Sequence record: MT446390.1 | DNA: 64,000 nucleotides | From: Escherichia phage TH12 | Strand: one strand, 5' to 3' | Shown here: one piece after another, positions 29,975-47,311 of the stretch | How positions within the stretch are numbered: position 1 is the stretch's first letter | Layout: each line of letters starts with the position of its first letter | Made by a program: the position numbers and the translations under genes | The notes under the pieces: model-generated | The model's input: only the letters and a program-made list of their open reading frames with translations | What the model was told of the DNA's origin: nothing | The model's database searches: none

Positions 29975-30660
<686 letters not shown>

Positions 30661-41951: not shown

Positions 41952-42229
41952 AAACATATAGTGAATTTTTATCAGAATCTATTCTTAACGAAGCTACTGA
42001 CACATTTGCAACTAAGCTAGGTGCAGCTTTGGTTGAAGCCGAAAGTCTATTAGCACGTATTTCTGAACTTGCTAGTAAGATAGATACTCGCAAATTTGAA
42101 CGTACCAGCGATATCGCTAAGCTTGAAGCCTTGTTACGTATGTGCGATAAACCGGAAGAAATCGCTAAGAACGGCTCGCTGATGAAACAACGTCTTGAAA
42201 AATATATTTCAGGCGCTTCAGAAAAATAG
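41933..42229 (+). CDS. internal-protein-like protein with capsid targeting sequence
   Basis: 98 aa; N-terminus [18 protein letters not shown]. Confidence 0.6.
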
Positions 42230-42230
42230 T

Positions 42231-42284
42231 GTTTACTTCCTCCAAGGGTTTTGATACTATACATTCATCAACTACTTGGAGGAA
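42231..42284 (+). promoter_or_regulatory. early promoter for denV embedded in a 10-bp inverted repeat that pairs the RBS
   Basis: GTTTAC at 42231-42236, TACTAT at 42255-42260; TTCCTCCAAG (42237-42246) is the exact reverse complement of CTTGGAGGAA (42275-42284). Confidence 0.6.
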
Positions 42285-42287
42285 ATT

Positions 42288-42701
42288 ATGACTCGTATCA
42301 ATTTAACACTTGTTTCTGAACTGACCGATCAACATCTTATGGCTGAGTATCGTGAATTACCACGCGTATTTAGTGCAGTCCGTAAACATGTCCAAAACGG
42401 TAAACGTGTAAAGGATTTTAAAATCTCTCCAACATTTATCTTAGGCACAGGTCACGTAACATTCTTTTACGACAAACTTGAATTTTTACGTTTACGACAA
42501 ATCGAGCTAATCGCTGAATGCTTGAAACGTGGTTTCAAAATCAAGGACACGACAGTCCAGGATATTTCCGACATCCCTGCCGAATTTCGTAATAATTATG
42601 TCCCGTCCGAAGCGTCCGTTGCGATAAGTCAAGCACGCTTAGATGAAAAAATTGCTCAACGTCCTACTTGGTACAAATACTATGGTAAATCAATTTACTA
42701 A
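42288..42701 (+). CDS. denV: endonuclease V, pyrimidine dimer DNA glycosylase (DenV)
   Basis: Start at [28 protein letters not shown]...; near-identical to T4 DenV. Confidence 0.95.
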
Positions 42702-42707
42702 GGAAAA

Positions 42708-42968
42708 ATGAAAATGTATCAAGAATTTATCATTGAAGCAGATGCCAAAGGTCCTAAATTTAAAGTTAAAGCTTTCATTGGTGATGCCGAAGACTTTGGC
42801 TCATTAAAACGTAATGGGTATTCTTTCTTAGGTGGCGATGGTAAAGAAATCAACACCTATGCAAAACGTAGTGAAATTGCTTATGTTGTAGTAAATCCTA
42901 AAGTAGATGTTGACGATATTGGATACGATTTTAACAACTTCGGAATTATTTCTGGCGGTAAAGCTTAA
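42708..42968 (+). CDS. internal-protein-like protein with capsid targeting sequence
   Basis: 86 aa; N-terminus MKMYQEFIIEADAKG. Confidence 0.6.
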   Translation: MKMYQEFIIEADAKGPKFKVKAFIGDAEDFGSLKRNGYSFLGGDGKEINTYAKRSEIAYVVVNPKVDVDDIGYDFNNFGIISGGKA

Positions 42969-42971
42969 ATT

Positions 42972-43001
42972 GTTTACGCTTAAGTATTAATATGGTATAA
43001 T
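42972..43001 (+). promoter_or_regulatory. early promoter
   Basis: GTTTAC, 18 nt, TATAAT. Confidence 0.6.
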
Positions 43002-43032
43002 TACTCTATCAAAACAAACAAGGAAACAAAAA

Positions 43033-43335
43033 ATGAAAACATATCAAGAATTTATTACTGAAGCGCGAGTGAGTGCAGGTAAATTAGAAGCCGCTATAAA
43101 TAAAAAGGCCCATTCATTTCATGATTTGTCCGATAAAGACCGTAAGAAACTTGTAAGCCTTTATATTGACAAAGAGCGTATTCTCGCTCTTCCTGGCGCT
43201 AATGAAGGTAAACAGGCCAAGCCTTTGAATGCTGTCGAAAAGAAAATTGATAACTTTGCTTCTAAATTCGGTATGTCTATGGATGACCTTCAGCAAGCGG
43301 CTATCGAAGCAGCTAAAGTAATTAAAGGTAAATAA
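43033..43335 (+). CDS. ipII: internal protein II (IPII)-like, capsid-targeted
   Basis: 100 aa; N-terminus MKTYQEFITEARVSAGKLEAA...; basic. Confidence 0.7.
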   Translation: MKTYQEFITEARVSAGKLEAAINKKAHSFHDLSDKDRKKLVSLYIDKERILALPGANEGKQAKPLNAVEKKIDNFASKFGMSMDDLQQAAIEAAKVIKGK

Positions 43336-43448
43336 CAGTTTACTTTCTCCTAGAATTGTGATAGTATATTCATAATTACTTAGAGGGGTAAATACAGAAA
43401 TGGACAATTCATGCGCCACGGAATGGCCCAACCTAAAAGAGAAACTAA

Positions 43449-43988
43449 ATGAGAACATTTTTAACTGGTCCTTATCTATCCCTGATGAATGCTTTTACAC
43501 ACCATTCTGATGTTAGAGTAGAAGAAATTTGTAAGAACGGTTATGCCCCACCATTTGAAGACGTACTCAAGCAGTACTGTACACTTCGTTTAGACGGCGG
43601 CAGACAATCAGGTAAATCGACTGCAGTAACTAATTTTGCTGTTAATTGGCTGTATGACGGTGGAACAGTTATTGTTCTTTCTAATACTTCAGCCTATGCT
43701 AAAATTTCTGCTGGCAACATTAAAAAAGAATTTTCTCGTTATTCTAGCGATGATATTCGATTCCGTTTATTTACCGATTCTGTCCGTAGTTTTATTGGCA
43801 ATGAAGGTTCTAAATTCCGTGGATTAACGCTTTCTCGTATTCTGTACATAATTGACGAGCCTATTAAAGCTCCTGATATGGATAAGATTTACAATGTCCA
43901 TATTAAAACAGTCCAACACTGTTGCAAAAGCAAATATTGCATCGGCGGTAATGCTCGTCCTCAATTTTTTGTGATTGGAATGCAATGA
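43449..43988 (+). CDS. hypothetical P-loop protein
   Basis: 179 aa; Walker A-like GGRQSGKST. Confidence 0.5.
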   Translation: MRTFLTGPYLSLMNAFTHHSDVRVEEICKNGYAPPFEDVLKQYCTLRLDGGRQSGKSTAVTNFAVNWLYDGGTVIVLSNTSAYAKISAGNIKKEFSRYSSDDIRFRLFTDSVRSFIGNEGSKFRGLTLSRILYIIDEPIKAPDMDKIYNVHIKTVQHCCKSKYCIGGNARPQFFVIGMQ

Positions 43989-44293
43989 TGACCACTATTG
44001 AAGTTTTTGAATATTGTTATAACAGCCCAGTATGCAATAAAAGGGCTCTTGTAGAAAATTATGAGATTTACCATTTTAAACCTAAACGATATCGTTTGAC
44101 TAAAGGCCCGTTCGCAGGGCAGCAGGTTCTTTGTACTGCTCCTAATGCACGGTTTATGACTAGTATTCCGCATTTCAAAATGGAATTTATTGATGGGCCG
44201 TTTAAGGGATTAATCACTCAAAGTTTAATGGCGTTTAATTCTGACCCATTTTTGATTAAAGAAAAAACTTGGATAAATTTATTTTCTAATTGA
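43985..44293 (+). CDS. hypothetical protein
   Basis: 102 aa ORF, ATGA overlap with upstream gene. Confidence 0.45.
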   Translation: MMTTIEVFEYCYNSPVCNKRALVENYEIYHFKPKRYRLTKGPFAGQQVLCTAPNARFMTSIPHFKMEFIDGPFKGLITQSLMAFNSDPFLIKEKTWINLFSN

Positions 44294-44299
44294 GGTTAT

Positions 44300-44662
44300 A
44301 TGAAAGCATATCAAATTCTTGAAGGCACACACAAAGGCACTATTTATTTTGAAGACGGTACTCAAGCCCGGATTATTGTCTCTAAGACTTTTAAAGAAGA
44401 CGCTATTGTAGACCCGGAAATTTTCTACGGTTTGAATGCCCGTGAAATTGAAATTGAACATCAACCTAAAGTTAAAATTGAAGGTGGTCAACACCTGAAC
44501 GTTAATGTTCTGCGTCGTGAAACTCTGGAAGATGCAGTTAAGCATCCAGAAAAATATCCGCAGTTGACCATCCGTGTATCCGGTTATGCAGTTCGCTTTA
44601 ACTCTCTGACTCCGGAACAGCAGCGTGACGTTATCGCTCGTACCTTTACTGAGAGTCTATAA
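44300..44662 (+). CDS. autonomous glycyl radical cofactor (GrcA/YfiD-like)
   Basis: 120 aa; C-terminal about 65 aa ([60 protein letters not shown]) matches the glycyl-radical domain of E. coli GrcA/PflB including the radical Gly in RVSGYAV. Confidence 0.85.
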
Positions 44663-44886
44663 TGGCTAAATTGATTATAGAAGGGTCTGAAGATGTTTTA
44701 AAATGTTTTGCCGCCTGGTTTAGTTGCTCAGGCGAGCAATCATTCATTGAAGCATTTAGAATGGGTGATATTACTGGAAACTATCCGACAACTGATATAA
44801 TTGTACGTGGATATGGCATTAATGAGCCTATCCAATTAGTCGAATATGACCTTGCCACTGATGAGGAAATTCCTTATGTCGATTGA
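44662..44886 (+). CDS. hypothetical protein
   Basis: 74 aa ORF. Confidence 0.45.
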   Translation: MAKLIIEGSEDVLKCFAAWFSCSGEQSFIEAFRMGDITGNYPTTDIIVRGYGINEPIQLVEYDLATDEEIPYVD

Positions 44887-45142
44887 AGACATCAAAGGCT
44901 ACAAGCCGCATACCGATGATAAAATCGGTAAAGTGAACGCTATTAAAGATGCAGAAGTCCGTCTTGGATTGTTGTTTGATGCTCTGATTGAAGAAGCATA
45001 TATCTTGAAAGAAAATGAAACAGAGCAACAAACCAAAGAAGATATGGATGCAGTACAGGCTCTTAAGTATGCTAAGCAACATCTAAAAGAAGCCAGCATG
45101 TGGGCCTGTCGTGCAGTATTTCGACCTGAGGAAAAATACTAA
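44876..45142 (+). CDS. vs.4-like protein (possible Acb2 cyclic-oligonucleotide sponge family)
   Basis: Start at ATG 44876 ([21 protein letters not shown]...) with RBS GAGGA; about 88 aa; assigned by position upstream of vs.3/regB and size. Confidence 0.5.
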
Positions 45143-45441
45143 TGGCTCAAATCCTATCAGGCTTTGGAACTCATTATGAAGCATCTAGACGCATAACTGA
45201 AAGCAATCCTTTTGGCCTTGTTCCGAAGCACAAGAAAATTCAAAGCCTTGATGACTTTGAGAACCGCCTATGGGCCCTCTTTAATGAGTACAAGGCATAT
45301 CTGAAAGAAGACGCTGACGATTGTCTTGAAGAAGATGAGATTGCGTATTACGAACAACGCCTTGAACAGCTCAAGAACTTCCATCAGGTTCGTGACGAAG
45401 TATCTAAAGCAGTTAAAAAGTTAATTCCTTTCAAAGAGTAG
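45142..45441 (+). CDS. hypothetical protein (vs.3 position)
   Basis: 99 aa ORF immediately upstream of regB. Confidence 0.5.
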
Positions 45442-45491
45442 TTTACTTCTCCTCTAGTTGTGTTACTATAGACTTGTCAACTAGAGGAGAA
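45441..45491 (+). promoter_or_regulatory. early promoter for regB embedded in a 14-bp inverted repeat that pairs the RBS
   Basis: GTTTAC at 45441-45446; TTCTCCTCTAGTTG (45447-45460) is the exact reverse complement of CAACTAGAGGAGAA (45478-45491). Confidence 0.6.
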
Positions 45492-45497
45492 ATCAAA

Positions 45498-45956
45498 ATG
45501 ACTATCAATTCGGAAGTTTTTATCCGCCGTAATAAACTCCGTCGAATCTTTGAAACGGAGTTCCGCAAAATAAATGCCGGTATAAAAGATGCTGCAAAGT
45601 CTCTTGGACTACCAGGCTTTCATATCAAGTATTCTCAACATCTCTTAGATCGTGCCATCCAGAGAGAAATAGATGAGAATTACGTTTTTGAATTATTTCA
45701 TAAAGTAAAAAATCATGTTAAAGAAGTTGCAGAATTTTTATCAATGCCGGCACGTCCAGATGTTGATGAAGATTTTGTCGAAGGTGTCGAATATCGCCCA
45801 GGCCGTTTAGAAATAACTGATGGAAATCTTTGGTTAGGTCTTACAGTTTGTCGCGAAAATCCGGCATTCAAAATGAAGACTCTTCAATGTAGAATGGCTA
45901 TTATTAACAGTAAACGACTACCAGGAAAAGCTTCTAAAGCAGTGATTAAAATCTAG
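45498..45956 (+). CDS. regB: RegB site-specific endoribonuclease
   Basis: Start at MTINSEVFIRRNKLRRIFETEFRKINAG...; near-identical to T4 RegB. Confidence 0.9.
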   Translation: MTINSEVFIRRNKLRRIFETEFRKINAGIKDAAKSLGLPGFHIKYSQHLLDRAIQREIDENYVFELFHKVKNHVKEVAEFLSMPARPDVDEDFVEGVEYRPGRLEITDGNLWLGLTVCRENPAFKMKTLQCRMAIINSKRLPGKASKAVIKI

Positions 45957-45964
45957 AGGTAAAC

Positions 45965-46507
45965 ATGAGAAAAGCACTACTCGCTGGTCTATTTGCTCTT
46001 TCGTTATCAGCACATAGCTCCGAGCATACTTTTAGTAATGTCCAACTCGATAACTTGAATTATGCTTATCAGTTTGGGGAACAGTTTTCTAAGGACGGAA
46101 AATTTAAAACGCATGAAAATATGCATAAGAAAGGACTTGGATACATAATGGCCGCAATACTATGGCAAGAATCATCCGCAGGTATTAATCTTAAAGATAA
46201 GAAAGGTCACCATGCGTATGGAATGTTCCAAAACTATCTACCAACAATGAGGGCAAGAATTAACCAGCTTGGTTATAATATGACTGATGCCCAAATTAAG
46301 AAAATGCTATCTAAGCGGTCTAATTCAGCAAGATGGGCTTATATCGAATTTTCTTATTGGTTAAATATACATAACGGGGATATAAGAAAAGCTATATCCT
46401 CATATAATGCGGGATGGAAGACAAGTGCTGGAAGTAAATATGCTTCTGAAGTCCTAGAAAAGGCTAATTACCTTAAATCAAATAAACTACTGGAAATAAA
46501 AGAATGA
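45965..46507 (+). CDS. secreted hypothetical protein (vs.1 position), possible lytic-transglycosylase-like
   Basis: 180 aa; N-terminal signal peptide MRKALLAGLFALSLSAHS; motif LWQESS. Confidence 0.5.
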   Translation: MRKALLAGLFALSLSAHSSEHTFSNVQLDNLNYAYQFGEQFSKDGKFKTHENMHKKGLGYIMAAILWQESSAGINLKDKKGHHAYGMFQNYLPTMRARINQLGYNMTDAQIKKMLSKRSNSARWAYIEFSYWLNIHNGDIRKAISSYNAGWKTSAGSKYASEVLEKANYLKSNKLLEIKE

Positions 46508-46851
46508 CCAAAATGTTGGCTTTAATAGTTAGCTTGGTTTCATTTAACGCTCTTGCTAATACTACATATACTGATGTAACGGAGTATACAAACAGAACGG
46601 CGTCTGATTATTGTGGTAAAAGTCAAGAGTGTAAAGTAGATTTTTCACAAAAATTGTTATATGCGTATAAAGACGGAGAAAAAGATGGGGCGTCTAGTAG
46701 GTTCAAGGCGTCTACTTTAATTAAAAGATACTATAAAAAATGGCAAATATTAGAATGCTCGGTGGCGGAACCTAAAGATAAGGCAGCATGCAATTCTATG
46801 GTGGACCGTCTAGTTGACTCTTATACTAGAGGACTTGTAGCAAGTGATTAA
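46504..46851 (+). CDS. secreted hypothetical protein (vs position)
   Basis: 115 aa; signal peptide MTKMLALIVSLVSFNALA. Confidence 0.5.
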   Translation: MTKMLALIVSLVSFNALANTTYTDVTEYTNRTASDYCGKSQECKVDFSQKLLYAYKDGEKDGASSRFKASTLIKRYYKKWQILECSVAEPKDKAACNSMVDRLVDSYTRGLVASD

Positions 46852-47311
46852 AAACTATATCAAGGGCGATATTGTCGCCCTGTTTTCTAAAGGTAATAAT
46901 ATTGCTCATGGGTGCAATTGTTTTCATACAATGGGTGCCGGTGTAGCAGGTCAATTGGCAAAGGCTTATCCAAAAATTTTAGAAGCCGATAAACTTCAAA
47001 CCGAATTCGGAGACGAGACTAAACTCGGGACTTATTCGGTTTATGAAAAATATTTTAAGACCCATAAAGCTTATTGCTTTAATCTTTATACACAGTTTGA
47101 GCCGGGACCTAATTTTGAGTACTCTGCTTTAATGAATTGTATAATAGAATTAAATGAATTCGGAAAAAATAAGATAACAAAGCCTGTAATTTATATGCCA
47201 AGAATTGGTGCAGGTATTGGTGGTGGAAACTGGGATGTCATCGAAGAGATTTTAGATACGTATTCCACTAAACTAGAAATTGTGATTGTTGATTGGGAAC
47301 CATTGTTATGA
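46844..47311 (+). CDS. macro-domain protein, TARG1/OARD1-like
   Basis: 155 aa; motifs IAHGCNCFHTMGAGVAGQ and PVIYMPRIGAGIGGGNWDVI parallel the OARD1/TARG1 macro-domain signature (AHC-S-D--MGAGIA ... MPRIGCGLD). Confidence 0.65.
   Translation: MIKNYIKGDIVALFSKGNNIAHGCNCFHTMGAGVAGQLAKAYPKILEADKLQTEFGDETKLGTYSVYEKYFKTHKAYCFNLYTQFEPGPNFEYSALMNCIIELNEFGKNKITKPVIYMPRIGAGIGGGNWDVIEEILDTYSTKLEIVIVDWEPLL

Follow-up and report, generated by a model that had tools for sequence, protein, structure and literature searches.

A probable cyclic-dinucleotide sponge of the Acb2 family at the vs.4 position of Escherichia phage TH12

Introduction

A small open reading frame (ORF) lies two genes upstream of regB in Escherichia phage TH12, in the slot that vs.4 occupies in phage T4. 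T4 Vs.4 is the Acb2 sponge, a protein that binds the cyclic nucleotides of CBASS defense, and its structure in complex with cGAMP is available [PDB 7UQ2; PMC10097602, Jenson et al. 2023]. Does the TH12 gene encode the same kind of protein, and if so, which signals would it bind? An earlier note on the window analysed here (a stretch of 64,000 nucleotides from sequence record MT446390.1) had proposed an Acb2-type sponge from position and size alone; that proposal now has the support of sequence, profile and fold comparisons. The ORF is very probably the T4 early gene vs.4/acb2 in its Mosigvirus (RB69-type) form, and its product a cyclic-dinucleotide sponge.

The protein itself is already known and is already a named member of the Acb2 family. 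It is identical at all 88 residues to gp117 of phage MM02 (MM02_00117), which was explicitly named Acb2 in a Nature paper of 2025 [PMC12657230], and it matches RB69 Vs.4 (NP_861808) at 87 of 88 positions. UniRef carries it as 'Acb2/Tad1 hairpin domain-containing protein', and GenBank records as 'hypothetical protein'. With the name Acb2 attached to this very protein both in print and in UniRef, the assignment is nothing new to biology. Our literature search, outside which lay the supplementary tables of a survey of 84 sponges, found no paper pairing Acb2 with RB69 and no experiment with this allele, whether on binding or on infection. The MM02 and RB69 proteins, which show no substantive difference from the TH12 protein and have the same neighbours, were named by homology, and the search found no biochemistry on either.

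The vs.4 gene and its boundaries

The features of the locus are collected in Table 1. The vs.4 ORF is confirmed as a real gene: it runs for 88 codons from an ATG to a stop on the plus strand (a coding sequence of 267 nt), exactly the coordinates and size given by the earlier note, and it is far beyond chance because its homology to the T4 protein spans the full length at E=1e-30. A GAGG Shine-Dalgarno motif (GATGAGGAAATTCCTTATG) lies 9-12 nt 5' of the ATG at 44876. At its start the gene shares 11 nt with the 3' end of the vs.5 homologue, and its stop codon has bases in common with the next start in the sequence TAATG at 45139-45143. Such tight packing is typical of T4-type early gene blocks.

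Table 1. Positions of the vs.4/acb2 gene, its segments, its neighbours and its companion gene in the window
Feature	Position	Strand	Description
57B/acb1	30205..30660	+	2H-phosphodiesterase cleaving cyclic oligonucleotides; Pfam PF23474, PDB 7T26
vs.6 homologue	44300..44662	+	GrcA-like glycyl-radical 'spare part' protein (PF01228, 67 bits)
vs.5 homologue	44662..44886	+	74 aa
vs.4/acb2 gene	44876..45142	+	helical hairpin of 88 aa, predicted to act as a hexameric sponge for cyclic dinucleotides
Y9, H12, T13, K24 codons	44900..44947	+	N-terminal half of the predicted cyclic-dinucleotide pocket
codons 43-65	45002..45070	+	hypervariable; hairpin tip plus the first half of helix 2; 4/23 identical to T4
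codons 66-88	45071..45139	+	conserved C-terminal segment: predicted interface A66, A73, A77; predicted contacts S74, R79, F82
vs.3-position ORF	45142..45441	+	99 aa
hairpin	45447..45491	+	perfect 14-bp stem (UUCUCCUCUAGUUG / CAACUAGAGGAGAA) between vs.3 stop and regB start
regB	45498..45956		Pfam REGB_T4, 231.8 bits
vs.1 homologue	45965..46507	+	N-terminus signal-peptide-like
tk.4 homologue	46844..47311	+	macro-domain protein (PF01661, 28.7 bits)

Other readings of the same DNA fared less well. A mechanical ORF list gives a 98-aa version that starts at 44846, but homology begins only at the methionine at 44876; the upstream start is also disfavoured by the position of the Shine-Dalgarno motif, before 44876, and by the records of relatives, which annotate a coding sequence of 267 nt. 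Two antisense ORFs, at 44828..45082 (84 aa) and 44899..45099 (66 aa), match no phage protein family in PHROG. Scans for promoters and terminators over 42000..46200 returned counts at the level of shuffled sequence, with no sign of a promoter dedicated to vs.4.

Relationship to T4 Vs.4

The alignment to T4 Vs.4 that the earlier note had called for gives clear similarity. Residues 3-88 align to 7UQ2 at E=1e-30, with 57 of 87 positions identical (66%). The Acb2/Tad1 hairpin domain of Pfam (PF24729) is matched at 65.7 bits against a cut-off of 27, and PHROG 717, the family by which Vs.4 homologues were defined [PMC10097602], at E=3.6e-28. A profile built from 121 homologues extends as far as the distant Acb2 of PaMx33 (8H2J and 8IXZ, E=6e-5). 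NCBIfam holds no model matching Acb2 or Acb1. An AF2 model of the 88-aa protein, built on the homologue alignment, has a pLDDT of 87.7 and is a helical hairpin with helices at 14-42 and 50-81. The top and only significant PDB matches returned by Foldseek for this model are the chains of 7UQ2 (TM 0.73-0.76); the rmsd of ~4 Å reflects the termini, which are poorly placed in the monomer model.

The T4 complex allows the comparison to be taken to single residues. In T4 Vs.4 the bases of cGAMP are stacked by Y8 and F82, while hydrogen bonds and salt bridges come from Y8, H11, K23 and R79, and changes at T12, S74, L29, F33, A66, A73 and A77 harm function or hexamer formation [PMC10097602]. Every one of these functionally tested residues is kept in TH12. 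Y8, H11, T12, K23, L29 and F33 appear as Y9, H12, T13, K24, L30 and F34, the TH12 protein having one extra N-terminal residue, and A66, A73, S74, A77, R79 and F82 retain their T4 numbering. Among the 121 homologues the tested set is mostly invariant or nearly so: the pocket residues Y9, H12, K24, S74, R79 and F82 are invariant and T13 is nearly so, while the equivalent of T4 F33 is either F or L. The vertex pocket thus has the Y, H, K, R, F and S contacts to cGAMP found in T4, the interface positions L30, F34, A66, A73 and A77 are all present, and both pocket and hexamer interface are, as judged from the sequence, predicted to be of the T4 type.

The two proteins are alike in length (88 aa), genomic slot and helical-hairpin fold, and nearly so in their terminal segments, with 33 of 39 residues identical in the N-terminal and 20 of 23 in the C-terminal one. 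They are unlike in residues 43-65, which include a one-residue indel, and at position 68, where Gln stands in place of the Thr of T4. PaMx33 Acb2 is far more distant: the two-helix hairpin is shared and its pocket residues Y11 and K26 align to Y9 and K24, but identity is only ~15-18%.

Genomic neighbourhood

The DNA of the locus is 99.3% identical to that of Shigella phage Shf125875, and for many further phages of the genus Mosigvirus (RB69-like) the figure is 98-99%. The genes follow one another as denV, two small internal-protein genes, vs.8, vs.7, vs.6, vs.5, vs.4, vs.3, regB, vs.1, vs and tk.4, as they do in T4 and RB69. This order bears out the placement of the ORF two genes upstream of regB, at the position of T4 vs.4.

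Several neighbours deserve a comment of their own. The small genes that flank vs.4 differ in length among relatives, the vs.5 product having 74 aa in TH12 and RB69 and 58 aa in T4, and the product of the vs.3-position ORF being longer in TH12 (99 aa) than in T4 (92 aa) or RB69 (73 aa, ORF117c); neither the vs.5 nor the vs.3-position ORF has a match in Pfam. The 3' half of the vs.6 homologue is 96-100% identical to T4 at the DNA level and the adjoining genes only 40-80%, an unusually sharp island of conservation. The perfect hairpin ahead of regB has a minimum free energy of -22.8 kcal/mol (z = -3.6), and its 3' arm carries GGAG, at once the Shine-Dalgarno motif of regB and the motif that RegB cleaves. 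At this site the T4 record shows an imperfect inverted repeat and a possible terminator. The TH12 hairpin may gate regB translation or take part in RegB autoregulation. Downstream, the Vs.1 homologue scores 18.8 bits against the SLT lytic transglycosylase domain, below the threshold of 21.3, and the Tk.4 homologue, a few genes beyond acb2, may bind or hydrolyse ADP-ribose by virtue of its macro domain.

The central segment and the range of ligands

The middle of the protein is another matter. Near the ends of the gene 80-90% of the DNA is identical to T4, and around 44990-45060 the figure falls to ~38-40%, the level of random sequence. Column entropy in the alignment of the 121 Straboviridae Acb2 homologues shows the same pattern family-wide: the sequence is hypervariable at residues 41-65, with indels, the proteins ranging from 81 to 98 aa, and the ends are almost fixed. 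The alleles also fall into discrete classes, with 134 records at no less than 95% identity to the TH12 allele, only two at 80-90% and 863 at 60-80%. The hypervariable middle, the fixed ends and the discrete classes together suggest that the middle of the gene has been replaced like a cassette.

The variable codons include those for M57, V60, Q61 and K64, which correspond to residues in the wall of the three-fold pocket where PaMx33 Acb2 binds cyclic trinucleotides. In that protein cA3 and cAAG are held by R67 and T74, with a kink in the helix at E64 [PMC10312549, Cao et al.; PDB 8H2J, 8H2X, 8IXZ]. T4 Acb2, with D61, T68 and an unkinked helix, binds cyclic dinucleotides but not cA3, and its D61R variant still fails to bind cA3 [PMC10312549]. 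A profile alignment of the TH12 protein to 8H2J places R67 and T74 opposite Q61 and Q68, neither of which is the residue of the broad-spectrum subtype represented by PaMx33 and JBD67, and places the kink, E64-P65, opposite D58-A59, where there is no proline; the helix from 50 to 81 is continuous in the AF2 model. Since both cA3-contact residues are replaced by Gln and the kink is absent, only cyclic-dinucleotide binding is predicted. On this combination of sequence and model, cyclic trinucleotides are most likely not bound by the RB69-type allele. The earlier note had written of a cyclic-oligonucleotide sponge; for dinucleotides the description stands, the pocket being conserved, but it is probably too broad where trinucleotides are concerned, given Q61 and Q68.

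Could the diverged middle nevertheless do something that the T4 protein does not? There is a slim chance that the Mosigvirus allele, through residues 43-65 together with Q68, has a ligand range unlike that of T4 Acb2. One possibility would be a second pocket on the three-fold axis, formed by K64, Q61 and Q68, for cyclic trinucleotides or some other signal. The other would be a tuned affinity that alters how the allele is seen by Panoptes and other systems that sense decoys. The main reading itself carries a caveat at position 68: in a T4-type Acb2 the naturally occurring substitution T68M reportedly weakens binding [PMC12657230], so Q68 could shift the affinity of the TH12 protein or its choice of ligands.

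A full alternative on these lines, in which the protein is an Acb2-family sponge whose range has been widened or shifted because the diverged middle remodels the three-fold pocket to accept cyclic trinucleotides or another immune signal, is slightly less probable still. The divergence from T4 is indeed concentrated in the segment with the counterparts of the three-fold pocket residues (Y37, A57, L60, D61, T64 and T68 in T4 become I38, M57, V60, Q61, K64 and Q68), a segment whose DNA identity to T4 is at the level of random sequence and which varies, indels included, throughout the family; K64 would ring the three-fold axis with three positive charges; and Acb2 homologues are known to vary in their ligands, which include cA3 and 3'cADPR. 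Against this, the two PaMx33 residues needed for cA3 are both Gln here, the proline-bearing kink that opens the PaMx33 pocket is missing, and an arginine restored to the T4 protein was not enough to confer binding of cA3. The variable segment, moreover, takes in a polar, acidic hairpin tip and may be no more than unconstrained surface. As for 3'cADPR, the Acb2 known to bind it does so in the vertex pocket, through different residues and with additional beta-strands, and the vertex pocket here is of the T4 type by sequence; a sponge against Thoeris, of the kind exemplified by Acb2_43 with its extra beta-strands, was considered and is unlikely.

Very unlikely indeed is a degenerate or inactive allele, with the fold kept and binding weak enough to evade Panoptes-like decoy sensing, as has been proposed for the T2 and Bas35 alleles: Panoptes does select for lost or weakened Acb2, T4-like phages offer natural examples (a binding-site mutation in T2, T68M in Bas35, a deletion in G2540) and residue 68 is not Thr here, but every residue that touches the ligand directly or lies at the interface is intact and invariant or nearly so, Gln, Glu or Asp is the usual state at position 68 among the 121 homologues, and the gene has neither frameshift nor stop and is preserved intact in 134 phage genomes with at least 95% identity, the exact sequence occurring on 172 public contigs. 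The behaviour of MM02 also bears on this. Panoptes is triggered by Acb proteins and restricts MM02, which has the identical protein, by 10^3-10^4 fold [PMC12657230]. An inactive allele would predict the reverse of such strong restriction, although the sensitivity of MM02 could stem from Acb1 alone.

The companion enzyme Acb1

The cyclic-dinucleotide sponge is not the only candidate countermeasure in this genome. The 57B product matches the Acb1 family of Pfam (PF23474) at 197.3 bits and the structure 7T26 at E=1e-58, and it has both HxT motifs, HST at 43-45 and HIT at 112-114. Acb1 degrades the signal as a 2H-phosphodiesterase, and the two HxT motifs belong to its catalytic tetrad [PMC9117128]. 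The family match, the structure match and the motifs all back the suggestion, made from the DNA at the outset, that 57B is a second and independent anti-CBASS activity, as it is in T4. Acb1 and Acb2 are alike in that they target the same host signals from the same genome, and unlike in that Acb1 has the unrelated 2H-phosphodiesterase fold and degrades its targets rather than sequestering them.

Proposed mechanism and implications

By analogy with T4 Vs.4, the 88-aa protein would fold as a two-helix hairpin and assemble into a hexamer. Each hexamer would have three pockets, each formed by a pair of protomers between their N- and C-terminal segments and each taking up one cyclic dinucleotide. 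Y9 and F82 would stack on the bases of the ligand, with H12, K24 and R79 contributing hydrogen bonds and salt bridges, and the expected ligands would be 3'3'-cGAMP, for which T4 Acb2 has a Kd of roughly 30-84 nM, and related cyclic dinucleotides. Sequestration of the signal made by the host CD-NTase would leave the CBASS effectors inactive and so let phage replication run to completion, while Acb1 would destroy such signals enzymatically as a second, independent countermeasure. For the TH12 allele we infer hexamer formation, ligand binding and the anti-CBASS effect from the T4 protein.

On this reading, an RB69-like phage has the same two-part anti-CBASS kit as T4, an Acb2 sponge and an Acb1 nuclease. 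The kit helps to predict host range on strains that bear CBASS, and the presence of Acb2 and Acb1 predicts vulnerability to Panoptes-type systems that sense depletion of the signal. The RB69-type allele differs from that of T4 over the whole central third of the protein. Were a distinct ligand range to prove true, the hypervariability of residues 43-65 across the family would record an arms race over a second pocket and not the neutral drift of a surface loop.
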